From assembly GCA_963514005.1 (NCBI GenBank), contig OY740818.1:10788001-10852000 (forward strand): a stretch of 64,000 nt of DNA, given 5' to 3'. This DNA comes from Raja brachyura (Eukaryota). The stretch's first letter is position 1, and every line of letters begins with the position of its first letter. The notes beneath the pieces were generated by a model. That model ran no database searches. It was not told the origin of the DNA and saw only the letters and a list, made by a program, of their open reading frames with translations. Shown one piece after another: positions 2,875 through 39,362 of this stretch. Both the position numbers and the translations under genes were made by a program.

Positions 2875-3360
2875 CAGTATGATTATTTATTGTCATGTAC
2901 ACCAGGGTGCGATGAAATTCCTAGTTCACATGAAGCTCACAGTGCAAACTCTGTACATACAGTTGTTATAAATACAATGACCAATGCAAAATGGCAGAAT
3001 GCTGCAAGGATGTGGCACAAAATCAGAGGAGGGCAGAACTACAAAACTGAATAACAGGATGAGGTTAAGTTAAGAATGGCAGCGCCTCTGTGAATGGGCT
3101 GCGAAATAAGTGATTGGTTCAGAAGCCGTGGGGAAGAAGCTGTTCCGAAGTCTGGATGTCCTTCTTGACTCTTCTCCCAAATGGCCGAAGAGAGAAATGG
3201 GAATAGCCAAGGTTCAATGATCCTTGACGATACCTCTAGCATTTCTGATGCAACACACCGTGAAGATAAACTGGATCGAAGGAAGCGATGTGCATGTGAT
3301 GCACGGGACTGTGTTCAGCACACTATACAGGCTCAGCCTGTCAAATTGAATTGCCATTGG
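2875..3360 (-). mobile_element. Old Rex1/Babar-like LINE fragment
   Basis: Degenerate ggggaagaagctgttc...ttctccc...tccttgacgat...ggactgtgttcagcac motifs are shared with the 1661-2268 element. Confidence 0.5.
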
Positions 3361-3426
3361 AAGCACAGTGGTAGAGTTGCTGCCTTATAACACCTGAGAC
3401 CCTAGTTCCATCCTGACTATGGGTGC

Positions 3427-3569
3427 TTCTTCTTCTTCTTGCATATGGCGTGCACAGCCTAAAGTTGTAGGACACCTTGTTCTATTTGATCTTATTTGAT
3501 TGTGTACGCCGGGTTGATTGCAACCTTCACGTGGTCCGCCCTGTTTTGACTAATGCAATCTTCCACCCC
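3427..3569 (-). mobile_element. Short non-autonomous retroelement (HDV-like-ribozyme-headed family), copy with inverted ribozyme core
   Basis: 11-bp TSD actatgggtgc at 3416-3426 and 3570-3580. The minus strand starts GGGGTGG and ends in a (GAA)n tail. Homologous to 13678-13810. Confidence 0.88.
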
Positions 3570-3686
3570 ACTATGGGTGCGATCTGTATGGAGTTTGCAT
3601 GTTCTCCCTGTTATCTATGTGGGATTTTTCCAGGTGCTCCCGTTTCCTCCCACATTCCAAACACGTCCAGGTTTGTAGGTTAATTA

Positions 3687-4243
3687 TGTAGTGGCCATTT
3701 GGCCTGTTTTGCATGACATTGATGATGGCATGTGCTTTTAAATGTTAGACTGCCTGTTATATTGTGGGTGGGATTTATGACGTGTTTTTGGGCATGTTTG
3801 CAGTTTAGATGCTTGCGCAGAAGCTTAGTTTTTAGATTAGATTGGAGAGTCGATGGGGAAGGTTAACCCTTTTACCATGCGGGGTTCATGCGAGATCATG
3901 CGGGCCATGCGAGGTCCACGGGAGATCTAAAGGAGATCATGCCAGATCTTGCCAGTGTTACGGAGACACGAGGAGTTTACTAATGTTTAAAGTAATAAGC
4001 TGGAGTTCGAAGAAGATTGTAGTAACGAGTAGGAAGAAACTTGGATGTATTTTACTGTTTTCTAGCAACAATTAAACATTTATTCATCAAAAGACTGTGT
4101 TTTGAAGTCATATCCGAGAAGAAGCTCTGAAAATCTCTGTGAGTGAGCTTGCATGCGTTCAGAAGACACCCCCTTCAACCATTCTCATCCAAATAGCGGC
4201 TAGGGTGCTAATTACCTGAAAGATATGATAATCTGCCACTACA
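3687..4243. mobile_element. Solo LTR (557 bp)
   Basis: TG...CA termini with short inverted ends tgtagtggc / gccactaca. 5-bp TSD aatta at 3682-3686 and 4244-4248. attaaa near 4071. Confidence 0.8.
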
Positions 4244-11733: not shown

Positions 11734-12309
11734 CGTTAATTTACAAAGTTTTGCATTTAATTCAATGGCACTTATCACAGTTCATTACCATTTATTATGC
11801 ATTGATTTGCAAATAATTTGATCACTTAATATTAGAATTAGGAGCCTCCAAACAAAACATTTGTTAAATGCTGATTCATAAAACAAACCACAATACCAAT
11901 CTGGGAACCTATCAGAATGTTTTAATATCAATAACTCACTTGCATTTACTGGACATTTATGTCATTTACCAGGACAGTAAATGATGAGAATTTAATAATT
12001 TACGTGTCCATTTATTTTAACATATAACTTCAATAATGTATTCCACCATTCCTTCATGTGACCTACAGGTTATAACCATGCAACATATAACATAGAACAG
12101 TATAGTGCAGAAACAGGCCCTTCTGCTAACAATGTCCATGCCGAACATACTTCCAAGTTAAATTGCTCAGTCTGATTTGTGGATGTTGCAGCATCATCAA
12201 CCACATCAGATAAATGGAGGAAGATATCGCTCAGTCAAGCTCATGGTTGTGTCGGAGGTTCTGGAATAGATTCATGGAATAATGTAATTGTATTAAGTAA
12301 TTTAGAGAA

Positions 12310-12513
12310 TGCAGATTGGCTATTTCATACTAGCCAATTATAGTGTTTGTTGGTAGTGACTCCACCTACTATGTACTTCATATTATCAAGAGCTTGCTTA
12401 CGCTAGTTAGAATGACTAGCAACTCGGAGATGTGATGACTGCAGATCCTTGCTGTATGTAGATTTAATAAATATGTGTTGTATCGTGATGTGTGTTCGAG
12501 TCGACTCATAACA
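12310..12513 (+). repeat. 5' LTR
   Basis: TG...CA termini, aataaa. About 16 mismatches in 204 nt versus the 3' LTR by manual alignment. Confidence 0.95.
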
Positions 12514-12531
12514 TGGTGTCAGAGAGTGAAT
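12514..12531 (+). promoter_or_regulatory. Primer binding site, tRNA-Leu-like
   Basis: tggtgtcagagagtgaat directly follows the LTR. TGGTGTCAG is complementary to the ...CUGACACCA 3' end of tRNA-Leu. Confidence 0.75.
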
Positions 12532-13677
12532 CTCCGCTCATGTTTATCAGGTTTTATTTTCTTCTGATTATTTTGTGTGTTTTTATCTCAATCATGGCAA
12601 ACTCGTGTCGCCGTCCTTTGATTCTGACATTGCTGAACGCTGGGGTCTTTTCGAGCGTGACTACGCTCATTATGCTTGCATCGTTCATCGGAATAACCCC
12701 CCCCAAGGTGCGTGCCCCTGTACTGCTTAATTTGGTGGGACCTGAAGCAATGAATCGTGCTGACAACTTCACTTTTGCTCCTGCTGTTTTAGAAGATGAC
12801 CGTCAGGTCAGAGTGCCTGCTGAAAAAACCAACGACCTTGCAGTTTTGATCAGAAAGTTCAGAGAGCTGTGTGAACTGCCATTTAACCATATAACAATCA
12901 CAGCACAGATTAATTAATTAATTTACACATTAATTACCGCCCTCTAACTACATTATTGAAAGGGCCAAGTTCTATGCTCGTGTACAGCAGGTCGACGAAC
13001 CAATTGAATGATTTATCGGCGGCTTGAAGCACATGGCTGCACGCTGTCGCTTTCGTGATTTACGGGATGAACTCACCCGGGTTAAGTTTGTGGGACGAAT
13101 GCTTGACAACAAGCTATGAGGTAAGCTCCTTCACAACGCTGATTTAACCCTAGAATAAGCAGAGCATGCTTGTCGTATTTCTGAGATAATGTCTCCCCAC
13201 ACTGACTCTGTGTCCTTCAGTCAACCTTCACAGCATAGTGTTAATCTTACAGACCTCTCCCCTTGCAACCCCCGCACAGGGTCTGAAGTTCGTTGTCAAA
13301 ATTGGAACTATTTCCATGCTACGGGTTGTCAATTCTGTGCTGCCTATAGGAAAACCTGTAATTTCTGTAAGAAATTAAATGACTTTGCTCGGTGTTGCTG
13401 TTCCCGTGTGATTCCTGTAGCTTCAAGGACGAGCCTGCACCTGCTTCAACATGAGTTTACTGATAATGACTTCCAAGAGCCTGACTCGCAATCCCCCGCA
13501 CCGCTCAGAGAGTACAGATACTAGTTCTGCCATCCACTCTCTCCTCCCTTCGTCTAACAATCAACTTGACCCTGAGGTAACCATGTTTTGGGAATAACAG
13601 GCCTTTGATCGCAAAGATAGATACTGGCGCCGAATGCAAATCTCATTAAGAGAGTTTTTTAAAAATCCGTAATGTTG

Positions 13678-13810
13678 CATCTTGCATATGGCGTGCACAG
13701 CCTAAAGTTGTGAGACAACTTGTTCTGTTTGATCTTCTGTTTGTGCACGCCAGGTTGATTGCATTCGTTGAAACAGGGTGGACCACGTGAAGGTTGCAAT
13801 CTCCCACCCC
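13678..13810 (-). mobile_element. Short non-autonomous retroelement nested in the Gypsy protease region
   Basis: TSD atccgtaatg(t/c)tg at 13665-13677 and 13811-13823. Same family as 3427-3569. Confidence 0.88.
13757..13810 (-). ncRNA. Predicted minimal HDV-like self-cleaving ribozyme (54 nt)
   Basis: Minus strand: P1 GGGGUGG, J1/2 GA, P2 GAUUGCA, P3 ACC, L3 UUCACGU, P3' GGU, P1' CCACCCU, GUUUCAA, J4/2 CGAA, P2' UGCAAUC. All three helices pair fully, with a G1-U wobble. Confidence 0.82.
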
Positions 13811-16419
13811 ATCCGTAATGCTGAACATATTGATAAGGCCTCCGCAACGCTTCAGGCTTACGGGGGAGAAGTACTACACCCACTTGGACAAGCTGATTTA
13901 AAGTGCACCATTGACAGACAGACCCATACCGTATCATTTTATATTGCTAAGGGAGATTTAGAGAATTTGCTCTACGTTCGGCACCCCCTTCGGTCGATAC
14001 AAATTTCTGAGAATGCCCTTTGGCATCAATTCCGCCAGCGAAGTTTCCCAGCACACTATGGAACAATTGTTTGCAGGGTACCCATGCGCTATCATTGTTG
14101 ATGATATTCTCGTTTACGGACACGATCTGGCTGAACATGACGCCAATCTGAATAAAGTACTTGACAGTGCCATATACATTTATCTTAAACTCAATCCCCT
14201 GAAGTGCAGGTTTCGAGTTCCAGAGGTTACTTACTTCAGACATGTGTTCACAAGTGATGGTCTCAAACCAGACCCGTCAAAAACTTTAGCTATCAACGAA
14301 ATGTCTGTTCCTGCTGACGTTGTGAGCTTACAAAGGTTCCTCGGAATGGTCAACTACCTGGGTAAGTTTATTCCCAACCTCAGCAACATATCTGCCCCCC
14401 CTACGAGAACTGTCACACAAGGGCGCGGCATGGTCCTGGTAGTGCCAAACAGCTCTTGACACTCTCAAATTGCAGCTGGCTAGCACAGCTACTCTCACCT
14501 ACTTTGCTTTGCAATTACCAGTAACTCTCACCTGCGATGCGTCCCAGTGTGGGCTAGGCGCAGTGTGCCTACAGACCACTACCGATGGGATTTTCAAGCC
14601 CGTTTCATACACCTCCCGTACGCTGACTGACACTGAACAGCGTTACGCCCAGATAGAAAAGGAACTGCTCGCAGTGGTTTTCGTCTGCACTAAATTCAAC
14701 GACTTTGTATTTGGAAAGTCTGTGACTACCGAGACTGACCACCAGCCGCAGGTCACCGTTTTGAACAAACCCATCCATGCCGCCCCAGCATGACTACAGC
14801 GAATGATGATGCAACTACAGCGATTTGATTTCAACATTGTCTACAAGAAAGGCAAAGTCATGCACATAGCAGACACGCTATCTGGAGCCCCGCGTAAAAC
14901 TAACGAAGAACAACTCTCCGAACAGGACCAATTCTCAGTAATTTAGGTTTCGTTTGTGCCAACTGACTGTTTGAGCAGCCCAGCAGAACACCTGGCTACT
15001 AATGAATTCTTACATTTGCTGTCTGCACTTATCTGGCGCGGCTGGTTCTAATAAAGAACACAACACCCCGCTCGAGATACACCCATACTTCCTGGTTCGC
15101 GATGAACTAGTATTACAGGACAGAATTATTATCAAGGGCCACAAGGCAGTGGTCCCAGCAGCCCTCTGGGACAAATTCTTTGACGACATCCACAGGGCCC
15201 ACCCTGGCGTGGAGGCAACCCTCCAGAGGGCGCAAAGCATGTTTTACTGGCCCGGAATGACCAAATACATACTTGAAAAAAACGAAGTTTGCGCCGTCTG
15301 CAAAAGCCTGACACAACATCAGCAAAAGCAGCCTCTACTGCCGCACCCAGTACCCCCTCTCCCATGGTCCACGTTAGCCACCGACATCTTCGAATGACAT
15401 GGGAAACACTATCTGGTCCTTGTACTCTTACTCTGGCTGATTCGAAATCGACTTACTTCAAACCACTACTTCTGAAGCAGTAATCGAAAAGCTGCAGCGC
15501 CATCTCTCCATGCACGTCTCCCCTGCACATATCCAGTCCGGCAACGGCAGACAGTTCACCAGCAAGCTTTTAAAAACTTTGCACAACAATGGGACTTTCA
15601 ACATATTACCAGCAGCCCTGAGTTCCCACAGTCCAACGGACTTGCCGAACGCGCGGTCCGGAGTGCAAAACAACTCATGGAGCGGTCATACCTTGCCAAA
15701 TCAGACGTGTATCTGGACTTGCTCAACCTAAGGAATATTACGCGAGATCCCATACTGGGTTCTCCAGCCCAACGACTGATGTCTCGCCAATCCCATGCTC
15801 CTCTGCCCACAAGTTTGTTCCCCAACTGCAGTTCAGAAGCAACTACAATCCAAACGTGAAACGCAGAAACGCTTCTTTGACAAGTCCAGTAAGCCACTTT
15901 AGCCTCTCGCTCGTGGACAAGTAGTCCGTCTCCAGACAAACAAGGGCTATGCACGTCTGGGACAGATCTACGGCTCTGCCAAAGAGCCGCGATCTTATCT
16001 GGTCGAAGCGGATGGAGCCATCTGCAGACGCAATCGTCAACATATCCTTCTAATGAAGGAACAGCATCCTGCGACTCCGTATCCTGATGTCTTGCGTTTT
16101 GTATACCCTCCCACAGTTGGTCCCGCTTCCCCACTGCCACCTATCGTTCCCACTGCAGTCTCCCCGCGGCATTTACCGCCTAGCTTGCCTATCTCACCTA
16201 TCTCATCACCCTCCCTGCCGTTCGGGCCGTCGGTCGTTTCCCCGTTTCCCTCCCCGGTTTTCTTCTCCAATGAAAGGAGGTGAGGCAGACTCGTACTGCA
16301 CACAGGCCAAAAGGGTTTGCAGGCCACCCATTAGATATGGCGATTTTGTGTAATTTTGCAAATGTATTATTAACATCCCTCCTATATTGCTTAGCCACCC
16401 ATGCTTCTTTTGTTTCTAC

Positions 16420-16428
16420 AAGGAAGGA
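16420..16428 (+). promoter_or_regulatory. Polypurine tract
   Basis: aaggaagga immediately before the 3' LTR. Confidence 0.7.
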
Positions 16429-16632
16429 CGTAGATTGACTATTTCATACTAGCCAATTATAGTGTTTGTTAGTAGTGACTCCGCCTACTATGTTCTTCAT
16501 ATTATCAAGAGCTTTCTTACGCTAGTTAGAATGAATTGCAACTTGGAGATGTGATGACTACAGATCCTTGCTGTATGCAGATTTAATAAACATGTGTTGT
16601 ATCATGATGTGTGTTCAAGTCGACTCATTACA
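16429..16632 (+). repeat. 3' LTR
   Basis: Direct repeat of 12310-12513. Starts CG (mutated TG) and ends CA. Confidence 0.95.
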
Positions 16633-22808: not shown

Positions 22809-23689
22809 AATAATGTTTATTGATGTCACATGTACCAAAGTATAGTGAAATGTGTGTGTACCTTCTGCAGGACTGGAGTAGGAAGAACACGGAATTACTA
22901 GAGTGGAACAAGTAATTGATTGTGTTGGCATTTTTTGGTGGGAATCTGGTCTGTGTGATGGACTTGGCTACATTCACAACTCTGCAATTTCTTGCGGTCT
23001 TGGGCAGAGCTATTCCTAAATCAACCCATGATTCAACCCTGCAGTATGCTTTCTATGTGTATCATATTGGTTTGGGAATATAAAACAGGAATCTGATGTT
23101 GAGATAAATAATAAAGCTTCATTGAATGGCCCAGCAACCTCAAAGGTCGAAAAGGTCTACTTTTATTTTTGTTTCAAAACCAGGTGAAATGCAGGTGTCA
23201 GAAGAAGCAATCCTTGGAATTTGTACTGGATAGATCTAATTGCACAGGTAGTTCATGTGGGCAAGTATTTCTTAAATACAAAATATAAATAGCTTGGTAT
23301 TGGATTTTTTAATGCATTTAATCTAAAATCATATTTAATTTTGAATTGTAACAAGGTAAACATCTGGCGATAGCCAAGTTTTATAATCTGAATCTGAATC
23401 TGAAAGCCTCAATTGAATTATTGTGAATCTGGAATTCTGTTCACTGAACAAATAAAAGATTTTATATAGATTTAGATTTTAGAATAAACAAAATGCTATG
23501 TTATCAATGTTGGTTAATATTACACAAATGCTGCCCGTTTTGGTGGACCAGTTACCTTTCTATTTTGAAGTAGAGTTCTGTTGAGGTATACGGTTAAAAC
23601 GTGAACCAAAGAGAGCCGATCCAAAATTAAGGAACTCCTATCTTTTCCATGCCTGACCCAGCCATTCTGGCTGTAATAGTGTAACTCCA

Positions 23690-23906
23690 GTGGCGCAGTG
23701 GTAGAGTAGCTGCCTTACAGTACCAGAGACCCGGGTTTGATCTTGACTATGGGTACTGTCAGTACAGAGTTTGTGTGTTCACTTGGCTTGGTATAATTAT
23801 GAATTGTCCCTAGTGTGTGTTGGACTGTGTGAATGTGCGGGGATTGCTGGTCAGCACGGACTCGGTGGGCCGATGGGCTGTTTCCACGCTGTATCACTAA
23901 ACTAAA
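23690..23906 (+). mobile_element. V-SINE (HE1-like), internally deleted
   Basis: gtggcgcagtggtagagtagctgccttacag...cccgggtttgatcttgactatggg...ctgtatcactaaactaaac. Confidence 0.8.
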
Positions 23907-23988
23907 CAATTATCTTAAACCAACTCTTGATCTCTTGGAGAATTGCTGTAGGTCTAAGCAAGCCATCTTGACAAAGGTGAAGTAGTGG

Positions 23989-24158
23989 GTAGACAAAAGT
24001 GCTGGAGAAACTCAGCGGGTATACTCAGCCGAAACCCTTCTTCAGACCGAAATGTTGCCTATTTCCTTCGCTCCATAGACGCTGCTGCACCCGCTGAGTT
24101 TCTCCAGCACTTTTGTCTACCTTTGATTTTTCAGCATCTGCAGTTTCTTCTTAAACAC
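23989..24158. mobile_element. Penelope-derived mini-element with inverted arms
   Basis: gtagacaaaagtgctggagaaactcagcggg / cccgctgagtttctccagcacttttgtctac are inverted. TSD aaggt(g/a)aagtagtgg at 23974-23988 and 24159-24173. Confidence 0.75.
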
Positions 24159-24199
24159 AAGGTAAAGTAGTGGCTGAGCCAACACAATCTGATTTGGAT

Positions 24200-24296
24200 G
24201 CTGAGCTGGATGATCAGCCATGATCATATTGAATGGCGGTGCAGGCTCGAAGGGCCGAATGGCCTACTCCTGCACCTAATTTCTATGTTTCTATGA
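24200..24296 (+). mobile_element. CR1 3' terminus
   Basis: gatgatcagccatgatcatattgaatggcggtgcaggctcgaagggccgaatggcctactcctgcacc...(tttctatg)2. Confidence 0.85.
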
Positions 24297-24720
24297 TTGA
24301 ACGCTACCTTTGGGTCCCATCTGGGTGAGGAAAATAATCAGGCCAGCTTCATCAGCAAAGGTACATAGATTACAAAGATAAGTATAAAAAAATATTAACA
24401 TGCACCAATTTCTATGTTTAATGATCCTTTGTATAAATCTATATTAGATCCATACTTAGTTCCTGTCTTTAAAACATTTAGGGGTTTTTCCCCACAAAAA
24501 CATATTTATATTAGAAGTAATGTTGCTCACTCTAATTGAGCCATTCTGCCAGAAACATTGTTGCAGCATGTCAGTTTTGTTGTTGTTAGTTTTGCTCAAT
24601 ACATTCTAATGTGGTTAGAAGCTGTGGTTTAGGAACAAATCATTTTTTAAACAACATTAATGGAATGAGAATATCACATTTAATTCCCTTGGAAGGTGTG
24701 GACTTTTTTTCCAATCCTTA

Positions 24721-25035
24721 CAATGCCCTCCATAGTGTTTAGGACAAAGACCCAATATTTATTTATTTGCCTCTGTATTCCACAATTTGAGATTTGTAAT
24801 AGAAAAAATCACATGGGGTTAAAGTGCACATTGTCAGATTTTAATAAAGGCCATTTTCATGCATTTTGGTTTCACCATGTAGAAATTACAGCAGGGTTTA
24901 AACTTAGTCCCCCCATTTCAGGGCATCATAATGTTTAGGACAGCAATGTAATGTAAATGAAAATCATGCTTAGTATTTTGTTGCATATCCTTTGCATGCA
25001 ATGACTGCTTGAAGTCTGCGATTTATGGACATCAC
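24721..25035 (+). mobile_element. Tc1/mariner-type left-end fragment
   Basis: ta|caatgccctccatagtgtttaggaca with an internal direct repeat cataatgtttaggaca (IR/DR type), followed by atatcctttgcatgcaatgactgcttgaagtctgcg. Confidence 0.6.
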
Positions 25036-27906
25036 AAAAGGTGTGTAATACAGGCACATAATTTGCACACAGAATGAACTCAATGGTATAATTGCTGTGT
25101 GAGTAATGTTGGTTGACTGATAAATATAGGCCACTACCATGAGGCCTTTTGCATCCACATGAAATTTTACCTGCAAGATTACAAAACTTGCCTAAATGTT
25201 CGATACAAAAGGCTGAAGTAACTCAGCGGGTCAGACAGCATCTCTGGAGAAAAGGAATAGATGACGTTTTGGGTCGAGACCCTTCTTAAGTGTTAAGTAT
25301 TAACCTAATTTATGTGCTGAAGTTCCTTGGCTGGAGCATAATACACATGGTCATATATTATGTCAATAAGAAAAGTCAACAGGTTTATAGCAGTTAGCTT
25401 TTTGTGAATTTTATCATAAATCTTATGGCAAACTGTTACCTTATAGGGATTTGGTTTCGGTGCAATGCAAATGGTTTCACAACTAATTTTGAACCCAAAT
25501 GTTTTTTTTTTCTTTTCAAATTATTTGACACCGAAAATTAACTTCTTTGAAAGACAGAAATATTTGAGCTTCAACCATTAAACTCAAAGCTCAGCTTTCA
25601 ATTCTATAAGTGCTGAGTTTAATATAAGCATTAACATGATTCTAATGAATTCTTTAGGAAATATGTTTATTTTTTGTACATGCCACCTAGATTTGAGGAT
25701 TCTGTTGGTCTCGGCCTGTTACAGAAATCATAAGAATACATTTTGTTTGGACTATCTTTGCAGGTGAACATTGTTTAGAGTTAAATAAACCAAATATTCC
25801 AGTGACATTCAAAATAAATACTAACCTAAATTATTAATGGATTGGTGATGCAGGCTCCAATGCTCAATTCTCTGTGGCATGTTCTGATTGTTTAAGTTTC
25901 AAGTAGGGTGCATAGTCAGTGGCCTAACCAAGATTGGTTGACTATTCCTTTGGTGGTTGATTCATTCACAGTTTATTGCGTATCAAAGTCGTGGTTTCAC
26001 TGTTCACCACATTGTGCTTAAACATAGTTACCATGTTGAAGTCTATTCCGTGGAACAATGTAATCTATGGTCATAAGTAGATACAAAATGCTGGAGTAAC
26101 TCAGCGTGACAGGCAGCATCTCTAGAGAGAAGGAATGGGTGACATTTCGGGACGAGACTCTTCTTCAGACTATGGTCTAATCTATAGTCTATTATAGTCT
26201 ATTAAAGAAAATGGGGGTGAGGGATCGCTTCCACCAACAAGCAATCAAGTCATTATCAAATTCTGCAGAAAAAAGTAGCAATTAGATTTGGATCAAAAGG
26301 AGAGATAACAATTGGGCTGCAATTGAGGGTATGAAATTGAGGGGGGTGTAACTGGGACACCAGGTGTCACCATTGTGGGCTTATCAATGAAACGTCAAAG
26401 AAGGAGAGTGCTCAACTGATAACCCCAATGACGTACCTACCCTACCTTTCACCACTCCAATCCCACTGCAAATAGTAAGAGTGCCGACTTATTGCAGGGA
26501 TTGAAACATCAAGTCCTATTAGCTCTACTATGGGCATTATAGTCTTTAATACTGATTTGCTTTTGAGAGTATTGTTCAGTTTCAAATTAAGTTTGCTTAT
26601 GTATATCTTCATAATATATTCTTAGCAGGAAGTTGCTTAAAAGCCCTGCTGAATTTGAGCACATAATTTAATCATATTCTGATGGCTTAATAACTTTCAA
26701 GATTGATTTGCATAAATATCAGATAGGGAATGGACCACGCATGGTTTTAATTGAATAGTGGGACTAATGCTCCAGATGGCCACCCTTGCCATATTACTCC
26801 ATGATTCTATCTAATTTATTTCTTAATCCTGGACACTTTACGTAATTTACTCGCAATTAGTGTGGTAGTTTATTGCAAAAAGTATTTTTGGTTCAGTATT
26901 CTTGGAGGGTATCTGCCTCATGTTTTACTAATTTACCATATGAGTGGTTCACATTTCTATCTGTGCAAGTCAAGGGCTGAGGTCAAATGGAGTTAACATT
27001 TTAAAAGGGCATGCAATGGCGAAAATTGGATTTAAAGTTTATATTGGTTCTACTAAATATTCGGGTCTCAAGCACTGTTTATGGGCCCTGTTCAGCATGG
27101 GTAACTATCGTGGAGAAAATGGGAAGATTGCATGCAAGCAAAATTGTAAAATAACAGCATTAGAATGAGAGCAAAGAAGTTCACATGTGTTGCTGATAAA
27201 CACAAAACAGTGGTCACTGTTATAGGATGTGGGGGAGAAGTGCTGGTGGTATGCTATTAGTTATTGGGTAAAGAAAGTGTATGACTGCTAACACTGGCAC
27301 ATACTCTGGTGCTTGCACAATCCAATTGTTTGGTGTCATGTGAGCACATTGTTCCAAGTGGAAATTTAGAATAACCAGCTGCTGCAACGGTTGTCTGAAA
27401 CAATTTATTCTGAAATTATTAGAAATGCCATTTTTCCGATCGCATTCATTAAGAGATTTTAAAATGCCTTCTTTCACATTTTAGTACCGAACTTTACATT
27501 AATGATAGAATCATTACAAAGTTTCCAGATGTTTATGTATATTTGCTTGGACATCCATTAAATGCTTATAATAACGTACAGTGAGTATCAGAATATGAAA
27601 GTTTTCTGTGATCAAGCTTGTTATTGATTTAATGGATTGTTATAATTTTTTTTTGTGTGAGACCATAGCATTTACTGAACCTATTTTAGGAGAATGAGTG
27701 GTGATTGCATTGAGTCATTGAAAATTCTTACTGGGCTTGACATTGTAGATGGAACATATATTTTCCTTGGCTTGCGTGTCTTGAACCAGGGCTCACAGTC
27801 TTAAATTAGGTGCTGATTTAAGATCAAGTATAAACGTCTTTAGTCAGGTTAGCTGGTCGTTCAAATTCTTTACCCATGGAAAAATGTGGAGATTCAATCT
27901 CTGAGT

Positions 27907-28215
27907 ATTTAGTTTAGTTTAGAGATACAGAGCAGAATCAGACCCTTCAGCCCAAAGGGTCCACGCCGACCAGCAATCTCCGCACACTTACACTATCCTA
28001 TACACACTCGGGACAATTTACAATTATACCACGACAATTAACTTACAAACCTGTATGTCTTTATAGTGTGGGAGGAAACTGGAGATCCCGGAGAAAACCC
28101 ACGCAGGTCACGGGGAGAATGAACAAACTCCATACAGCCAAACAGCCGTAGTCAGGATTGAACCTGGGTCTCTGACGCTCTAAGGCAGCATATCTACTGC
28201 TGCACCTCCATGCCA
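27907..28215 (-). mobile_element. V-SINE (HE1-like)
   Basis: (tttag)n tail, gtgtgggaggaaactggagatcccggagaaaacccacgcaggtcacggggagaat core and tRNA-like head on the minus strand. Confidence 0.88.
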
Positions 28216-28949
28216 CCCAAATATATTTAATTCAGATTTGTGGAGAAACTGACACTGAGTTAAAGGATCTTGTTGAATAACGGAACAAGAACAATGTGCT
28301 GAATGGCCCTCTACTTCCATTTCTGTTGTTCTGAAATAACATTTTGACATCTCTGAACCAAGTAGCTATAAAGGTTTCTACAGGAAAATAGGATATAACT
28401 TTTATAAATGGTATTATCATGGTGTTGGAGGGAATTTTGTGTTATACTTGTACCCTGAATCTGGCTTTACTAGGGGCCTCGCTCAGATAGGAACAAGCAC
28501 AAAATAAAACATCTCAAAGATCAGTGGTGAATTTCTCGAACAAGTCGGCTTATTAAAGGCCTTGACAGTGCGCACTGGTAAAAATACTCTGAGAAAACCC
28601 AAATGGTGAGTGGCAGAACCTGGGCCCTGATAATTATTTGTTGAGTACAACAAATGGGACCCCATCAAGTGGCCACTAAGCACTGAACCCGAGTCTCGGG
28701 AGCAAGAGAACCAGGTACCTGAAGACCAGGAAGGGAGCATGGGGACCTAGACCCTGGAAGTGGACAGGGAGCATGGTGACCTAATGAGAAGGAAGGCAGC
28801 ATAGGTACTGGGGTCCCAGAAAGTAGAAAACAAGGGCAGGAACAGGGGCCGTGTTGAGTAGAAATTGCCAACCTCATCTAATGAGTCAGATGCCAAACCA
28901 TGAGAATATCCAAGGGATGGATGCTCAGATTTTATTCTTTCTCAGGTGG

Positions 28950-30900
28950 AAATAGCATTTTCTCAGAGAAAAAAAAAGCTTTCTCAGGATTCATGTGCAA
29001 TGTTACACTGCTTCTGGGATATCACTTTAGTAATGTCAAGTTTTATTTTTAATATTGCAGGATACATTTAAGAAGTCTCAAGGTTATCATCTATGATGCA
29101 GTTATGCTTTTCCTTGAAGCCACAGTAGGGATAAGGCAAGTTTTACAGTTAACTTTGTGTCTCAATTTAGAATTACTGATGTAGAACTTCAGCGTTTTCT
29201 GCAGTATTTTTGGCAAAGCAAGTCAGAGCACTGATGGGTGAAAAGTTCAGTGCTAAATTCCTTTGATTCTGGGATAGCTAAAAATTAGCCTGAGGGATTT
29301 CCCCTTTTCTGAAATTCTGGAAATTGTTAAGAATTCATGCTTCCACAGAGCTTTAGAAGACCCAGATTCATGATTGTTCAAAGATTACCTGGCAGTATGA
29401 AAATGGAAGCCTATCTTGCAGCATTTGTGTATAAACCAGTTTGATTAGCCTGAAAGTTTGTAAATCGATTGAATCAAGAGGTAGGGCAGGTTATTCCATG
29501 AAGATTATTAAGATAGACTGTTAAGTCAGGAGGATAGACAGTTCGAGGAATCACAAGCCCGTTACCCTTTCTCAGAGGAATCTTTCAACATTAACATTTT
29601 TTGGATTTGTGTTAATGAGTTACAGACTTTATCTCTGTTGCATGGTAAATCGTATCTGCTTATTCAGCATCAATGTATTTGGAAATATTCTGCAAGTTAC
29701 AGAATTTGAATCCATGAGATTTCATGAAATTGACTGTAGAGATGATGATATTTATTGCAAGTATAAATAAAACTTTTTAAAAAAGGTTTTGCTAGTGAAT
29801 TACACTATAATAGTAGATGAGCTGCACCTCCAACACCCAGAGAGTGCGCAGGATATGTGAACATTGCAACGTTCCATTGTGTTCCAATGTCACCGACAGC
29901 ACACCATCTGTCAAAACACTAATCAGTTTTTCCATTTCAAACTCAAAACCTCAATTTTATTCTGGTAATTGATAAAACAAATGCGAATGAACCCGAAGAT
30001 GTCTGGATTACCTGGGCCTGTACTACTGGAGCATAGGAGGGTGGGGGGGGGGATCTCATTGAAACTTGCCGAATAATGGAAATGACTGGATAGAGTGGAT
30101 GTGGAGAGGATGTTTCCATTAGTGGAGAGTCTCAGAGCAGAGGACACAGCCTTCGAAGGAAAGGGCCTACATTTAGAAAGGAAATGAGCAGGAATTTCTT
30201 TAGTCAGAAGGTGGTGAATCTGTGGAATTCATTGCCACCAACTGCTGTGGAACTCAATTCCTTGGGTATTTTAAAATCAGAAATTGATAGGTTCTTGATT
30301 AGTAAGGGAGTCAAAGGTTATGGGGAGAGGGCAGAGAAATATGGTTGGAGGGAAAGATAGATCATTCACAATTGAATGGTGGAACAGAATAATTCTGCGC
30401 CTATATTATGAACAAATCCTTGTGCATTCTTCCATGAGGTGAAACCATTCTGTTGATTCTTTGTAAGCTGTGACAATCTTTTTGTTTAGTGTTTAAAGCT
30501 TCAATTGAACACAGTGTTTTGCACGCAACTAATGAGCAGTTTTCTTCTAATCTACATATCTAATGGAAGCAATCTGTAGCCCAGCTCTGAGAGTTTCAGA
30601 TTCTTTCTGCACATTTTGCAAGATTTTCTTCTCGCAGGCAACTGTTGTCTAACATGTGTACAGTTTCTGTCTGTGTGCAGTTATATTGCAGGTTGATATG
30701 AGCCTGTTTGGTGTTACAACCTTTATTAAAGTTGAATTATTTTTGGCACTGCAATTTTTCCATTACATATCAAACATTAATTCAGCCCTCTTTCTTCAAC
30801 AAAGCAGCATTTTTCTGTGCAAGCCTCTTGGAATTTCACTATTTTCCATCTATGTTTATCTGCTTTATCACCACCATGACCTTTTTGCTTCATTTATTTC
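28950..30900 (-). mobile_element. Decayed hAT (Charlie/SPIN/GTF2IRD2-like) transposase, interrupted by CR1
   Basis: Manual minus-strand translation: KFQEACTEKCCFVEE...CLICNGKIAVPK (BED-like), LKWKN..SVLTDG, SVIH*Q (cf. CIIHQ), VNFMKSHG...IDAE*ADTIYH. Confidence 0.7.
30010..30410 (+). mobile_element. CR1 3' fragment inserted in the hAT remnant
   Basis: ggatagagtggatgtggagaggatgtttccattagtgggagagt-like segment through aggaatttctttagtcagaaggtggtgaatctgtggaattc to the 3' UTR. Confidence 0.85.
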
Positions 30901-33042
30901 ACCAGTTCTTGCACTCTTTTTCGTAGTTCTTTTATTCCCATGCTCTTTGCTGACCGTGCTGCCTCTGTGTTGCTCTCTTGTTTCTCTCCAGCTTGTAGTG
31001 TGCTCTTCACCCTTCTCTTGCTTTGGTGCGTGTGGTACCACTTTGTCATTTCCGGTACACCATCCAACATTGCCAACAATGCTGTTGTCTTCTGCAAACC
31101 TTTTATTACTCCTTTGATCAAATAATGGTGCTTACCTGCTTGGAACACATCATGGCACTGAGGTGGGATGGATGTAACCATTGGGGTCTCTGCTGCGTAT
31201 ATAGGTAATAAAATCAACAAGTTTACCGAAGGGATATATCGTGTGACTAATTTGCGATAAGAATCTGATGCAGATTACCGATATTCATAGTTATGGGCTT
31301 TGTCTTTGATATTTATTAATATCATTAAATAACCACTTTACTAAGCAGGTAAATTTTAGTCTCTTAAATTTTGTCATCTAAAGTAAATAATGAGAATGAG
31401 TAAGAATGTATAGAGATAAATCTCCTTTCCACAGTGTATTTATCGAACAGCTGCTTTTGTCAAATTATTCAGTCTCAATTGACAACTCTTTCGAAGGATT
31501 ATGAGCTTACTAATTAATTTCAGTCAAGTTATTATTGTGAGTTTCAAACCTCCTTTTCAATACTCACTTCTAGTAAATTCATTTCAGGAATGCAGATTTT
31601 AAAAATCGCCCAATCATACTGGCATTTTGATTTAATGGATACTTGAAATTTTTAACGCTTCTTAATGTAAAGGATCTTGTTGAATAACAGAACAAGAACA
31701 AGGTGCTGAATGGCCTTGAATGGTACTTTTGTACCATTTTGTTATGATGCACCTGTTCTTACTTTTCTGTCGTTGAACTGGAGATGAGCAACAATTTCCA
31801 TTATGTTGTTATCAGAATTTGTGAATGATTGACTTTTATTCCAAATACTCATCTGCAGGATATATTGTAGTTTTGAATGTAAATTTCAACTATTTTTTCC
31901 TATTTATCACAAATTCTTATTTGCTGACTTTTGATTTGTTTCTAATAAATCATTTCTATATTTGATAAGTACAATCTTCCCTCGATATTACGGACTACTT
32001 TGTAACTGATTTTGGTTATAGAAGATAGGGTGTCCCTCCAGTACTAATCAGGCACCACTGTCCCTTTCAGAGCACAGGCTGCAAGTTGCACTGTGGGAGG
32101 CCATTAAAATTGCCATGTAATTGCTTTGATCAACACTTGTGCAACGATAATTAAACAATGTAACAGCCTTTAATATTTTTAGCAATGCAGTAACAAAAGT
32201 ACGTTTAGCTGTTAAAAAGAACTTTGTATTTTAGAACAACTCATTGTTTCATCGAGTAACCACTAAGTGCTTGGAGCGAATTCCTCACTCTGTTATCGAC
32301 AATAACGGACACCAAAGGAAATGGAATGGAATTCAAATTTCTGGAAATGTTTTTTATCTTAAGTCTGATCAACTCAATGATTAGTCATGAGTCTCATCTT
32401 CAATGGAGATCAAACATAAATTGAGAAACCAGAACAAATAGCTGTTAACGGGTTCTGCCTGAGTATTTCCAGCATTTTTCCTTCATTTCAAATGTGTGCT
32501 TTCTAAGTATTTTGCTTTCGTATCACATTGCCCCATGGCATCAACATGTGTGAGATTATCTTAAAGGTGTATAATCAATCTAATTATCAAAATTTGCATC
32601 AGTGTTACGTTTACTGTCCTTCCCAGTCTTACAAATGAAGTTATGCTTGCTTTATTTATCCATTCTTATCAACAAAACTGCTTCTGGCCCTTCACTTACG
32701 TAGTTCATGATGAATGTTTAGTTGCGTGGGCAAGAGTAATTGTAGGGCTGTATGTTACTGATTATAAATGACATCATAAACATAATCCTAAACAGCATAA
32801 TTCAATCATATAGAATATTTATTAATAATTATTGTTTGGATTTGAATGTAAAGTAACTGTCTTTGAAATTCTGAAGTTTGGATTTAAATGAAATTCTGCT
32901 ATATATTGCTGAGATGTGAGATGTAATACTTTTTTAATACTGCTTATAAGATGTATTTTTATATTTAAAGATATCAATTAATTATTATAAAATCAATGTT
33001 GATTTGTTTTTCTTTTGTCTTGCTAAATTTATTTCCCCAAAG

Positions 33043-33239
33043 CCTTGAAATTTGGTATTGGTGATCTTGCAAACTCTTTAGACATCATTGAGGAGAAACT
33101 AAATCATCCAGCACGAAAACGAAGGCATGCAAAGAAAGATGACTACAACATTGAAGCTCTATTGGCAGTAGATGATTCAGTTGTTCGATTCCATGGAAAA
33201 CAGCATGTTCAGAACTATGTTCTGACCCTAATGAATATT
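33043..33239 (+). CDS. adamts14: ADAMTS14-like coding exon (prodomain end, furin site, start of metalloprotease domain; phase 1 to phase 0)
   Basis: Pyrimidine-rich tract with aag ending at 33042, and donor gtaagt at 33240. Translates (A)[69 protein letters not shown] at 33114-33125. Joins in frame to the upstream exon (g+cc = Ala). Confidence 0.95.
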
Positions 33240-36140
33240 GTAAGTGGCCTTATATACTATTTATTGTATTTTATTCTTCCTTCATTAGTAACAATTGAAT
33301 TTTGTGTCACCCATAAATCTGTAATTTGAAGTTAGTGTACGTAACATTTATCATTTTCTGTATTCTCATTGAATCTGGAGTTGTACAGTGGGATGATATC
33401 ATGAACGTGTGAATTTTCCACTCTAGGCTATTCTAGCACAGTCATTAATTAATGTAAATGGTATTGTACCTCCACAGTGAGGGATGAGATAAAACAGCTG
33501 AACAGATTATGTGCATAGCTGTCCATTTCATTGAGTAATGTTGAGAACGATGTGTTCAATTATATATATTTATTTAAAAATACCAAGAAGTTCATCAAAT
33601 ATGCACAGCACAAACAGACATTATCATCACAGACCTGCTGTTTGTAAATTTTGCAGTTTGTAAACATGTTTGCACTTTGGGTTTTCCATTATACTTTGTG
33701 CCAATGTACCTTGCATGAAAGAAAACTGGTAACTCAGCGTGTTACTGGTAACACGAGAAAGGCCAGGAGGCTTGAGGAAGCAAAATAGAATGTTAGCAGG
33801 ATTAGGGCAAGGTTTGGATGCCAGCAAGTACCGTGAATCTGAGGCCTGCATTCACTAGGTGGCTACGATTGTAAAGACTGCAAGCTTGGTGATATGGACG
33901 ATAAGTGCAATATAAATGGTAAAGGAGCATCCCCGGGTAAAAAACAAGTTCTGTTTTTCCGTACAATTTTGTCCCCATGTTAGAAAATAGACGAGTATAA
34001 CTTGATATAATAACCATACCTCCATAGTATTGCAATGAATGTCATCAAAAGCACATTAGACTGATGTGAATTAATCTTCTGGCCCAGCCTGTCATGAGGA
34101 AATTTGTTCCATGATTTACTAAAGTCCATTTAGAATGGTTTCCATTTTGAAAACATCCACATCATTTTCATTACCTCTTCAAGCGCACACATCAAATTTG
34201 TGAGAGAGTACCTCCTCCACAAAAAGCTGTATTGACTGATTATGATCCAATTATGATGGTCTATTTATATATTTAAAACACCCTCCTGGATATAATTAAT
34301 AGATTCTGCCCCATCTGACACTAAATTTCTAATCAGCAGCAAGTCTGGGTACATTACACAAGATCCCTTTATTCAAACCATTGATAAAATGTAAGGATGA
34401 CATCCAAGTATTGTTTCTACCTAGAAATATTTAGCACTATAGTATTGCACTTATTGGCTGATTAGAAATATTGGATTTGTTATAGCTAATCACCAGTTGT
34501 GAAGTAACATTATGATTTGTACATGCTCAAGCGAAAATCAGTTTAAAGCTAGATTACCTTCTGTTACCCTGCTAGTTAGAGATAACTTGGATTATCTCTT
34601 GGGTTACTTTTCATAGAATTATGTTTGAATTTAGTTCATTTTTTGTTATTGTGGCATTCATTTTTTTTGAAAAATGGCCTGTCGGCAATAACCAGTTAAT
34701 GTATATAATGCTTGAATTGTAAGAAGTTTTGTTTCACTTTTGTTCTAATTATTCATAAAGTCTTTGCAAAATTACCAGTATCTCCTAAATATTGTCTCTC
34801 TGGCCTTTTCCTCGCCAGTTTTGCTCATTTTACCATAATGATCAATAAGCCTGTGTATGTGCCAGTAATATTTAGTTTTATTGTTCCACTATCATCAACT
34901 GGTGACAGGATACAACTGGATGATTGCTTGTCTAGTATTATTGAGAATGGGCCAGATTTTTGTTTTGCCACTTTGTGTTCAAGACTGAATGCATGCTGTC
35001 CAGTCACTACTTATAAACACTGCAGCTTAGTTTGTGATCTTTTTTTTCCTTTGAGTGCCACAATGTAATGTACGTTACTTTGGTGAACTGCTAAATTCTC
35101 AGCTTAGCTTCAAATCCTAAATTCTGTCCCATTTCCAGCTCTATAATATTTTCCTGCTGTTTCTGTTCCAATTTTAACCTGTGCCTATGGAAAATGTGAA
35201 GTGTTAACGATTCCAAACATACAATAATTTTATTATTTTTTATTTTATATGCCTTTCTTTACTCTGTTACATCAAATTTTCCAGTGAATGAGTCTCATGG
35301 TATGCTAAATTTTGTATGTTTACTCATCCATGAAGCACCTTGGAACTATTTACTGAAAATTGCATATCTGCGCTGAGATTGATGGGCAGTGCAGCCGTTT
35401 GAGAACAATACTGGATGGTGAAGTAAGCTGGCTTGTATCTGCATTGTAAAATGCCTTACAAATACTAAATTAATCTCCTGATCTTTTAGTTTAGTGTTTC
35501 CGTTCACTAGGCCTGATAAGTTTGCCCTTTAAAGTTAAAAGTTACTCAGTGCACAAGAATGCACAAGAATATACAATTGTTGCAATACTTTATGTTTTTA
35601 AAACTTGGTCTCTTTTCCATCTGCGCCACTACATAATAAAATATTGTTCTTGAAGCTCCATAGAAAGATGGTAGCATGGATGGAATCTCCTGAAATATAC
35701 TAGTACGTCGAATTGGGGGGACCCAATTGAAGCATCTGATTTTTCAGTGGCAGCAATTAGCAAAGAAAGATTAATAGTAAAAAAATGCCCAGAATTTGAC
35801 AGGGTGAGATATTCAATTGCTCTTGCATTATCTTATTAAATCTTTCCTGCAGTTTTCTAAAAATGCGATCTAATGTAGGTTAGCAAAGGAAATAGGGTCT
35901 GAAAATGTCATCTTTAACCTCTTGGGTACAGCTTGTGTGGTGTGCTTTAAGATTGTGTTCCCTAGTAAATAATGTAATTAGGTTGCCTAGTGCAACAATG
36001 CCCTGTTTACATTCCAGCATACTAAGTCATTAATGTGTTTAAAATTGCACAGCTGCTCTCATTTAACCTCACAGCTATGGACTTCACATCTAGCCCTTAA
36101 AGGGCCACTTGCAGAAATAAACCAGTGTTGTTCCAACTAA

Positions 36141-36178
36141 TGTTTAAGAAGGAACTGCAGATGCTGGATTTGTCTACC
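36141..36178. mobile_element. 38-bp Penelope-family micro-insertion
   Basis: tgtttaagaaggaactgcagatgctgg+atttgtctacc between a perfect 13-bp TSD ttgttccaactaa (36128-36140, 36179-36191). Confidence 0.7.
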
Positions 36179-36462
36179 TTGTTCCAACTAAAGTATGTTG
36201 CTTTCTCAAATATGGCTTCTGTAATAATGGAGTAAATAATAAAAGGTTTCAAATGTGGCCTGTCTTAGAGCAGTGGAGAACGGTGTCCACTGAAGGGATT
36301 GCATCTGTTTCAGACATCCTCAGAGAACCTCCAATGCTCTATTCACGTGCTCCTGGTATTAGATACCTATGTGTGCATGGAGTAAGCAGTGAGGCTACAT
36401 AGTAATGAGCAGGCACGGAAATCGCTATCAAAACATGGGGGGGGGACACAATATCTTGGCGG

Positions 36463-36463
<1 letters not shown>

Positions 36464-36503
<40 letters not shown>

Positions 36504-36532
36504 CGCATACGCACACACGCATACGCACACAC
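36464..36532. repeat. (CA)n microsatellite with CG/TA interruptions
   Basis: Visible dinucleotide run. Confidence 0.95.
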
Positions 36533-36774
36533 GCTAGACTTCGGCCATGGGTCCTGTGGACGGTAACATCGGAAGCTGACCTGCTTGGTGAACGACTCCA
36601 AACTCCAGCAACAGCAGCTTGGTCCACCCCAAATCGTGGGGCTTGAATCGGCCCGTTCGTGGGGCTTTTCATCGGCCGGCGGGGACTTCAACATTCAATT
36701 CAAACTTCAATTTGTGGCTGAGTGTGAAATAAACTGGGGTATTTCCAACTAATGGCTAGGATGTAATGAAAATA

Positions 36775-36995
36775 AACTGCAGATGCAAGTTTATGCCAAA
36801 GATAGACACTAAATGCTGGAGTAACTCAGTTGGTCAGGCAGCATCTATAGAGTAAATGGGTAGGTGACGTTTCAAGGGTAAACAAAAAGCTGGAGAAACT
36901 CAGCGGGTGCAGCAGCATCTAAGGAGCGAAGGAGGTAGGTGACGTTTCGGGTCGAGACCCTTCTTCAGACTTAAGTCTGGACCCTTCTTCGGACT
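36775..36995 (-). mobile_element. Stacked Penelope-derived mini-elements
   Basis: Two tandem gctggag(t/a)aactcag...gcagcatct...ggtgacgtttc units. An intact gacgtttcgggtcgagacccttcttcag lies at ~36941-36968. Confidence 0.72.
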
Positions 36996-37421
36996 GATTG
37001 TAGGTGGGAGATACTGGAAGTAATGGTTAGAAGTTCTCTATGAAACCAAACTCTGTGCTGCTGGTCAGCTCAATTTAGCACATTAAATAATTGGTTTGAT
37101 TTTTCAATAATTGAATCCAAAGATTTTTCTGGAGCACCTAGATTGATTGGAAGTAATTATAACTTTATTCTATTATCAGTTATCCATTTTGTTGTGAAGG
37201 GTATATTATGGTGGAGAACTTTGAGATATAGGAATCAGTTCTTTGTTGCTGATGCTATCATCACAAGCTGCATTCTAAAGAATCGCTAACTTTGTAGTTA
37301 GAATGGCCTGAATTTAGTTGTAAAGGCATTGATATTGTCAGATTGAGATAATGGTGCATTCTGGCTGCTTGCCTTTGGTCTCACTTTTATTGCAAAAGTT
37401 AGAGAATACCATGTTAGATAT

Positions 37422-39362
37422 TTAACCATATAACAATTACAGCACGGAAACAGGCCCTCTTGGCCCTTCCAGTCCGTGCCGACCATTTATTTTCCCCTAG
37501 TCCATCTACCTGCACTCAGACCATACCCCTCCATTCCCTTCCCGTCCATATACCTATCCACTTTATTTTTAAATGTTAAAATCGATCCTGCCTCCACCAC
37601 TTCTGCTGGAAGCTCATTCCGCACAGCCACCACTCTCTGAGTAAAGAAGTTCCCCCTCATGTTACCCCTAAACTTCTGTCCCTTAATTCCCATGTCTGGC
37701 CCTCTTGTTTGAATCTTCCCTACCCTCAATGGGAAAAGCTTATCCACGTCAACTCTGTCTATCCCTTTCATCATTTAAAAAACCTCAATCAAGTCCCCCC
37801 TTAACCTTCTGTGCTCCAAAGAATAAAGACCTAACTTGTTCAACCTTTCTCTGTAACTTAGTTGGTGGAACCCAGGCAACATTCTAGTAAACCTCCTCTG
37901 TACTCTCTCTATTTTGTTGACATCTTTCCTATAATTAGGCGACCAAAATTGTACACCATACTACAGAATTGGTCTTACCAATGCCTTGTACAATTTTAAC
38001 ATTACTTCCCTACTCCTATATTCAATGCTCTGATTTATAAAGGCCAGCACACCAAAAGCTTTCTTTACCACCCTATCTACATGCGATTCCACCTTCAGGG
38101 AACTATGCACAGTTATTCCTAGATCCCTCTGTTCCACAGCATTCCTCAACTCCCTACCATTTACCATGTACGTCCTATTTTGATTTGTCCTGCCAAGATG
38201 TAGCACTTCACACTTATCAGCATTAAACTCCATCTGCCATCTTTCAGCCCACTCTTCCAAATGGCCCAAATCTCTCTGTAGACTTTGAAAATCTACTTCA
38301 TTATCCACAACACCACCTATCTTAGTATCATCTGCATACTTACTTATCCAATTTTCCACCCCATCATCCAAATCATTGATGTACATGACAAGCAACAGTG
38401 GACCCAACACAGATCCCTGAGGCACCCCACTGGTCACCAGCTTCCAACCTGACAAACAGCCATCCACCATTACTCTCTGGCATCTCCCATTCAGCCACTG
38501 TTGAATCCATTTGCTACTCCGCCATTAACACCCAAAGATTGAACCTTCTTAACCAACCTTCCATGGGGAATCTTGTCAAAGGCCTTACTGAAATCCATAT
38601 AGACAACATCCACTGCTTTACCCTCATCAATTTCCCTAGTAACCTCTTCAAAAAATTCAAGAAGGTTTGTCAAACATGACCTTCCAGGCACAAATCCATG
38701 TTGACTGTTCCTGATCAGACCCTGTTTATCCAGCTGCTTATATATATTATATCTAAGTATCCTTTCCATTCATTTGCCCACCACTGACGTCAAACTAACA
38801 GGTCTATAATTGCTAGGTTTATTCTTTGAACCCTTTTTAAACAATGGAACAACATCGCAGTACGCCAATCCTCCGGCACTATTCCCGTTTCTAATGACAT
38901 TTGAAATATTTCTGTCATAGCCCCTGCTATTTCTACACTAACTTCCCTCAATGTCCTAGGGAATATCCTGTCAGGACCTGGAGACATCCACTTTTATATT
39001 TTTCAAAAGTGTCAGTACTTCCTCCTCTTTGAATCTCATAGTTTCCATAGCTACTCTACTTTTTTCCCTTACCTCACAGAGTTCAATATCCTTCTCGTTG
39101 GTGAATACCGAAGGAAATAAATTGTTCAATATCTCCTCCATCTCTTTTGGCTCTGCATATAGCTGTCCATTCTGGCTCCCCAATGGTCCAATTATATCCC
39201 TCGTTATCCTTTTGCTATTAATATAACTGTAGAAACCCTTTGGATTTACTTTAACCTTTCTTGCCAAAGCAACCTCATATCTTCTTTTAGCCTTTCTAAT
39301 TTCTTTCTTAAGATTCTTTTTACATTCTTTATACTCCTTTAGCACCTCATTTACTCCATGCC
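37422..39362 (-). mobile_element. CR1 LINE (HER1-like), ~1.9-kb 5'-truncated, relatively young
   Basis: ORFs contain SPGPDRIFPR, QHGFVPGRSCLTNL...YMDFSKAFDKIPH and SGVPQGSVLGPLL...YADDTKI, split by frameshifts. 3' UTR and short tail present. Confidence 0.95.

Follow-up and report, generated by a model that had tools for sequence, protein, structure and literature searches.

A short internally deleted Vingi-like LINE derivative whose 5' end carries a predicted P4-less HDV-like ribozyme, in the genome of Raja brachyura

The 133-nt element at positions 13678–13810 (minus strand; copy A) of the window, by which we mean the whole 64,000-nucleotide stretch of DNA analyzed, is most likely an internally deleted Vingi-like LINE that keeps about the first 79 and the last 32 bases of its parent, and in its nt 1–54 a P4-less HDV-like ribozyme is predicted, with a likely cut 5' of G1. 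Judged by sequence comparison, the element should be classed with the non-autonomous, internally deleted LINEs (SIDE/NARTc type) rather than with classical SINEs, and its family comprises several subfamilies with independent deletions. A sequence-only reading of the same DNA had described a SINE-like family; its ribozyme-type head and mobility stand, and the class is revised to an internally deleted LINE.

Copy A reads on the minus strand from 13810 as that earlier reading had it. The flanking TSDs are located at 13665–13677 and 13811–13823, the latter adjoining G1. A contig from DNA run X21 skips 146 bases (133 + 13) at this site (one contig, depth 4.5), which supports the previously proposed TSD length of 13 bp. 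Its place also holds, and the two repeats match less well than had been claimed, with one mismatch and 10 bp exact. All internal parts are on the minus strand. The LINE 5' end (5' UTR) has its counterpart in nt 1–79 (13732–13810; ~90% identical), the LINE 3' end (last codons, stop, and 3' UTR) in nt 100–131 (13680–13711), and the ~20-nt junction between them (13712–13731) has no clear LINE match. A 3' hairpin spans 13689–13752, and the arms of its 11-bp stem (13742–13752/13689–13699) derive one from the LINE 5' UTR and the other from the LINE 3' UTR. A 3' hairpin and tail had been named before; the hairpin is present, and the (GAA)n tail of the family is missing from copy A. The coding capacity is at most 44 codons in 133 nt. 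At one position of the 3' stem, 39 of 60 short copies have GG, versus GA in 14 of 16 LINE heads. This G-for-A change in most short copies lengthens the stem, and end-to-end pairing of the stem may possibly be under selection. Copy A sits on the antisense strand of a decayed LTR retrotransposon (12306–16632) that has 208-nt repeats (12306–12513 and 16425–16632; 92% alike) and carries RT, RNase H, and integrase zinc domains in a Gypsy-like order.

The predicted ribozyme occupies 13757–13810 on the minus strand. In this fold, the P1 5' strand (nt 1–7; 13804–13810) pairs with nt 30–36 (13775–13781) and includes G1·U36, and the P2 5' arm (nt 10–16; 13795–13801) pairs with nt 48–54 (13757–13763), the J1/2 spacer being 2 nt. 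The P3-L3-P3 segment (13782–13794) consists of P3 (nt 17–19/27–29) and a 7-nt L3, with U20, C22, and G25. P1.1 is a single pair, C22–G37, and G37 is followed by a 6-nt linker where P4 would be (13768–13774). These 7 nt between P1 and J4/2 have no fold, such that the P4 hairpin is absent. J4/2 (13764–13767) reads C-N-A-A, with the candidate catalytic C44 at 13767. The predicted cut, 5' of G1 at 13810, falls on the element/TSD boundary, as G1 adjoins the upstream TSD. The sequence-only reading had proposed these helices, L3, J4/2 with its C at 13767, the one-pair P1.1, the missing P4, and this cut site, and all were recovered. A descriptor of the HDV topology has one match in the 64-kb window on both strands, at 13810, and no match in 20 two-mer shuffles of the window. 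Nested folding by ViennaRNA, which cannot represent the pseudoknot, was not significant (z of −1.46 for the whole element and +1.08 for the 62-nt head), and P1 and P3 are present in the MFE structure. A search of copy A against Rfam gave no ribozyme match.

Copies of this family are numerous. Across the 2.7-Gb genome, 12,007 exact matches were obtained with a 21-nt head pattern and 4,193 with a 22-nt tail pattern; the reversed-pattern control gave none in either case. Of these tail matches, the first 90 (all from contig C1) were read, and 80 of them have an alignable head. The other 10 include one LINE 3' end and one core-inverted copy, and the rest are 5'-truncated or unclear. The exact head pattern is present in 36 of these 90 copies, which gives an estimate of ~30,000 family copies (95% CI 23,600–40,300), probably a floor because both patterns favor young copies. 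Mean divergence from the column majority is ~5%. The copies are dispersed and flanked by TSDs with a modal length of 11 bp, as expected from the mobility claimed earlier, and have (GAA)n tails. The family was also seen in the DNA of at least one other organism (run X21, 10,619 contigs) and in the RNA of another organism (run X24). On contig C1, pairs of oppositely oriented head matches ~1.4–1.6 kb apart recur many times over between 14.79 and 14.95 Mb, and this run is probably a segmental tandem array bearing two copies.

The 5' ends of the family coincide with G1. A TSD could be assigned confidently in 50 full-length copies: in 39 it adjoins or overlaps G1, in 10 an extra 1–2 bases (mostly T) precede G1, and one copy lies in a G run. 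A T precedes G1 in 45 of 71 copies. This T is mostly inside the TSD (23 of 39, P = 1.6e-4 against 30%), indicating that it is a feature of the target and that the element starts at G1. T is likewise found before G1 in two metagenome families (L185, L194, L205, L210, and L226). Within the family, only four core positions (8, 32, 42, and 45) have a minor allele at ≥20%, and all four are structure-neutral, being located in J1/2, in the U5–A32/U5·G32 pair, in the linker, and at the variable J4/2 base. The one-sided change between U5–A32 and U5·G32 is the single pairing change within the family. Position 45 in J4/2 varies among G, U, and A, and C44, A46, and A47 have no master-lineage variant. The descriptor still fits 19 (strict) to 28 (relaxed) of 80 genomic copies.

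An autonomous-type LINE of ~3.1 kb shares both termini with the short element; the sequence-only reading had suggested a search for such a LINE, along with genome copy number and the position of the family 5' ends. At locus L045, the same tail follows a coding end with a CDCG..H..C motif. The parent was traced from this locus to RT-coding copies and from a head variant to the ORF start. In locus L153, a single ~3.1-kb copy, the head (92% identical over q9–74) is accompanied by APE and RT domains, a CCHC-like end, and the tail of the short family. Most of the element head is present at 19 of 30 loci with a LINE ORF start and part of it at 3 of 30, and the flanks of these 30 loci, compared by eye, have no common sequence upstream of G1. 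The last 32 nt and (GAA)n of the short family are common to the LINE 3' end. At least four different deletion junction types exist, and every one keeps the whole 54-nt head. The LINE has one ORF with APE, RT, and a zinc-finger-like end, and the RNase H family is absent, also in full-length homologs. Its nearest homologs are ~1000-aa APE + RT proteins, at 71% for an eel and ~48% for aphids and a psyllid, with others from further contigs. Vingi has been described as having a compact single ORF with APE and RT and without RNase H (PMC13708176). The parent LINE fits a Vingi-like assignment, which is based on architecture rather than on a tree with reference elements. The C-terminal CDCG..H..C motif is taken by us as a mark of Ingi/Vingi. 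RTE is separated by a C-terminal CCHC-like motif, and this motif together with the homolog set rules out RTE as the parent. The Ingi/Vingi-like or RTE-like partner proposed earlier is thus retained in its Vingi-like form only. The scoring of 45 candidates, with 67 matches, yielded no intact parent ORF, which is a lower bound given that the first look was stricter. As every scored LINE copy is broken, the family is probably inactive now. Viral contigs yielded two weak RT matches.

The fold recurs in other Vingi-like families. Three more such LINE families are present in the genome (L369, L372, and L374–L385), with 35–43% identity to P0001 and GAA-type tails in all three. The fold was found at the 5' ends of two of these (L375/L384 and L376) and of two metagenome-contig families (L226, L185, L205, L221, L224, and L231; L210 and L194), of which the metagenome families each consist of 2–6 decayed copies, L376 is one copy, and the fold of L384 was read by eye. 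Across families, P1 position 5 is U–A, A–U, C–G, or G–C, the first P3 pair is A–U or G–C, and P1.1 is C–G or U–A, with C22–G37 changed to U22–A37 in L375. Both bases have changed together at positions 4–7 of P1, in the greater part of P2, at the first pair of P3, and in P1.1. The positions fixed in all five families are U20, G25, the J4/2 C, the last J4/2 A, and the G1 pair; C22 in P3-L3-P3 is also kept across families, apart from its change to U22 in L375. The four other families have a foldable P4 region of 24–42 nt, and the window family alone is without P4. The TSD adjoins G1 in L375 as well. The pairing covariation that had been named earlier as a check is therefore seen, with P1, P2, P3, and P1.1 kept by compensatory changes across five families. 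These changes provide good support for an HDV-like fold in Vingi-like 5' ends, from which cleavage is predicted.

Descriptor and model searches bear on the same point. A generic descriptor matches L375, L376, and the window copy; when 61.5 kb was shuffled 60 times and searched on both strands, it had no match. The Rfam HDV-F-prausnitzii model, which includes P4, aligns L210 and L194 from G1 with 31.7 and 30.5 bits (E of 0.035 and 0.067, respectively), below the gathering score of 44. Among 80 metagenome loci, the strict descriptor has no match and the relaxed descriptor has six, where shuffles give 0.2; of these six, L225 resembles a chance match. Among the 18 metagenome loci with the N-terminal protein part, 8 have the fold, intact or decayed. 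It was not seen at L163, L166, L168, L169, L181, L188, L193, L197, and L229, and L176 is too decayed to parse. The L372 group has no 5' end among the copies examined.

The second copy in the window, copy B (3427–3569, minus strand), belongs to the main subfamily and has a (GAA)n tail and an exact 11-bp TSD (3416–3426/3570–3580). Its place and TSD are as first described, and its ribozyme is not intact. The ribozyme core (3523–3553) is inverted exactly between the P2 arms and lies on the plus strand; copy B thus cannot form the ribozyme fold. The P2 arms are a 7-bp inverted repeat, and the inversion that they bound is recurrent (loci L243–L272 and L355). A flipped-core pattern has 35 matches in the genome, and 24 of the 30 examined are true P2-bounded inversions, or 22 once two duplicate pairs are merged. 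The backgrounds are the main type in 16 cases, the A-type in seven, and another type in one, representing at least two subfamilies, and most inverted copies show a TSD by eye. Inverted cores amount to ~0.23% of heads and to 1 of 90 in the tail-picked sample. In comparison, the corresponding genome pattern for a segment flipped between the 3' hairpin's longer arms had no match, against ~10 expected (P = 6e-5), which ties the flip to the 5' P2 arms and not to inverted repeats generally. We infer a double template switch as the cause of the core flip, at the time of 5'-end joining; alternatively, the core may have switched later, at the DNA level.

The mobilization of the short element most likely runs as follows. 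A copy inside the transcript of a host gene or another element would be read through, and the ribozyme would free it, leaving a 5'-OH on G1. The LINE protein would then bind the 3' end common to the LINE and the short element, nick the target, and prime on the GAA tail. Copying would run to G1, sometimes with the addition of 1–2 untemplated bases, and give rise to TSDs of ~11 bp. Both the cut at G1 and trans-mobilization by the LINE protein are suggested by the precedent of R2 and L1Tc (PMC6765202; PMC4035085; PMC3414825). Among 828 strand-ambiguous reads from poly(A) RNA-seq run X24 (related organism), molecule starts do not pile up, and 304 reads, likewise of ambiguous strand, cross 13810–13812 into unrelated flank; the strand ratios are 0.4–0.7 along the element. 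These data are weak and tell neither for nor against cleavage, given the strand ambiguity and the fact that only 19–28 of 80 copies fit the descriptor; runs X1 and X8, which may be RNA, were left out of the evidence. Some well-folded SIDER heads of trypanosomatids are inactive in vitro (PMC4035085). Furthermore, a very short J1/2 lowered the activity of a large HDV-like ribozyme (PMC4908430), a precedent that counts against cleavage because J1/2 is only 2 nt here. P4-less ribozymes do cleave in vitro (PMC10879173).

Other explanations of the head deserve consideration. An unlikely one, which nonetheless carries the most weight among them, is that the main function of the head is that of an internal promoter with its start at G1, or of a fold protecting the 5' end, with cleavage slow or dispensable after the loss of P4. 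The Pr77 of L1Tc and NARTc is an internal promoter and a ribozyme at once (PMC3383444), and the HDV fold aids R2 templates by stabilizing the 5' end (PMC11331408). A promoter acting at +1 would yield the same 5' ends, and the lack of a 5'-end pile-up in the strand-ambiguous X24 reads is also consistent with this explanation. However, all five families retain the catalytic C, the A's of J4/2, U20, G25, and the G1 pair despite changes in the helices, and a promoter would have no need of these bases. In addition, an extra G is a sign of capped templates, and a clear extra G is present at only 1 of 11 extra-base junctions, plus one in a G run.

It is much less probable that the ribozyme worked in the LINE and is carried along in the short element, whose spread would then be due only to its being short enough for chance-started RNA to be copied in full. 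The LINE 5' end is necessarily kept in any internal deletion, and the fold is decayed in most genomic copies, but an RNA beginning at G1 would still require a cut or a promoter. Moreover, all 54 nt are kept in every amplified subfamily seen, with frequent variants at tolerant positions only. Core-inverted copies arose in several backgrounds and none was amplified, a point of little weight as few copies become masters. The least credible explanation, to which we assign hardly any probability, is a conventional Pol III SINE with an unrecognized small-RNA head and a coincidental fold. The size, tail, and copy number are indeed SINE-like. In contrast, the head comes from the 5' UTR of the LINE itself, ARAGORN found no tRNA in the element, A/B-box patterns had no match, and the descriptor had no match in shuffled controls. 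The LINE-derived head and the covariation across families contradict this explanation. The earlier statement that the element has no tRNA, 7SL, or 5S head and no coding capacity agrees with these results and with the negative Rfam search.

A short LINE derivative with a self-cleaving head would have several relatives. Elements that join a ribozyme to a LINE 3' end (R2 SIDEs and NARTc/RIME/SIDER), bipartite derivatives of Vingi, and active P4-less ribozymes are all known. R2 SIDEs have a 5' HDV-like ribozyme, the 3' end of the parent LINE, and no ORF, and they are moved in trans (PMC3414825), as inferred for the present element. However, they are rare, reside in rDNA, and carry the large R2 ribozyme (first ~184 nt; PMC6765202), whereas the ~130-nt element here is dispersed in ~30,000 copies, its head is 54 nt long and P4-less, and its parent is of the APE type. 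NARTc, RIME, and SIDER are also short derivatives of Ingi-clade LINEs with an HDV-like head whose cut site is +1, but their 77-nt Pr77/L1TcRz head has P4, their parent is from a sister clade, and their hosts are protists (PMC4035085); the element here has a head without P4 and belongs to a 2.7-Gb animal genome. The derivatives of Vingi-1_EE are internally deleted from a Vingi LINE with both ends kept, and many are independent (Kojima 2018, PMC5786205); set against these, an HDV-like fold is found here in five Vingi-like families.

For the head itself, the minimal HDV-like/theta ribozymes are the closest in form, with a P4-less double pseudoknot of ~55 nt, a cut at G1, and a C in J4/2 (Kienbeck 2024, PMC10879173). 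Nearly 99% of these are in Caudoviricetes, often beside tRNAs (PMC10879173), whereas the predicted ribozyme here heads a eukaryotic retroelement. The P4-bearing relatives suggest that P4 was lost separately in this family. The active CPEB3 ribozyme resembles the head in having G1·U36, U20·G25, and a P1.1 of one G–C pair beside U–U, and differs in having P4 and in its location in a host-gene intron (PMC4836649).

In PMC5786205, ribozymes are listed for six LINE clades and Vingi is not among them. The literature searched dealt with R2, RTE, and Ingi ribozymes, with no Vingi ribozyme among them; PMC3391268 and PMC5753468 added nothing on Vingi structure. A P4-less head in an animal retroelement, the fold throughout Vingi, and the P2-bounded inversion were likewise not found in the literature searched, and may have been cataloged earlier. 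A bolder reading, about which we lean slightly toward doubt, is that HDV-like ribozymes are a clade-wide and so far undocumented trait of Vingi 5' ends and have here shrunk to an active 54-nt P4-less form, giving rise to a promoter-free element of ~130 nt that reached copy numbers in the tens of thousands and may hold the most abundant minimal ribozyme of an animal genome. The P2-bounded inversion would then reflect polymerase template switching via P2 complementarity at 5'-end joining.

With cleavage predicted, these findings would extend ribozyme-defined 5' ends to the Vingi clade. As with RTE, Ingi, and R2, this would account for the origin of short bipartite elements from Vingi, which PMC5786205 left as an open question. 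A eukaryotic role would also be provided for P4-less minimal HDV-like ribozymes, whose origin and function are given as undetermined in PMC10879173. The element may further offer a candidate minimal template of ~130 nt for a LINE clade used in gene writing with native 5' UTRs (PMC13708176). Finally, thousands of copies that fit the fold, to judge from 19–28 of the 80 sampled, could cut host transcripts when inserted in the sense direction.

Several minor observations concern the surroundings of these elements. The neighboring repeats would suit a cartilaginous-fish host. In the window, a longer repeat at ~3360–3690 surrounds copy B and has related copies at 23693, 28036, and 58216; we take it to resemble a tRNA-derived SINE. 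At 13 of the 30 ORF-start LINE loci (L121, L125–L129, L133, L140–L142, L145, L149, and L150), the 3' part is inverted, and the 5' end meets it head-to-head at G1 or shortly behind it. Such LINE 5' inversions are also present at L063, L071, and L148, and at L185 and L210 in metagenome contigs. An open frame of 285 aa in L068 (2491–3345, minus strand) has, by eye, the look of a DIRS-like tyrosine recombinase. At L155 (401–537), a short element with a TSD has landed in its own parent LINE, within the 5' part of the coding region.
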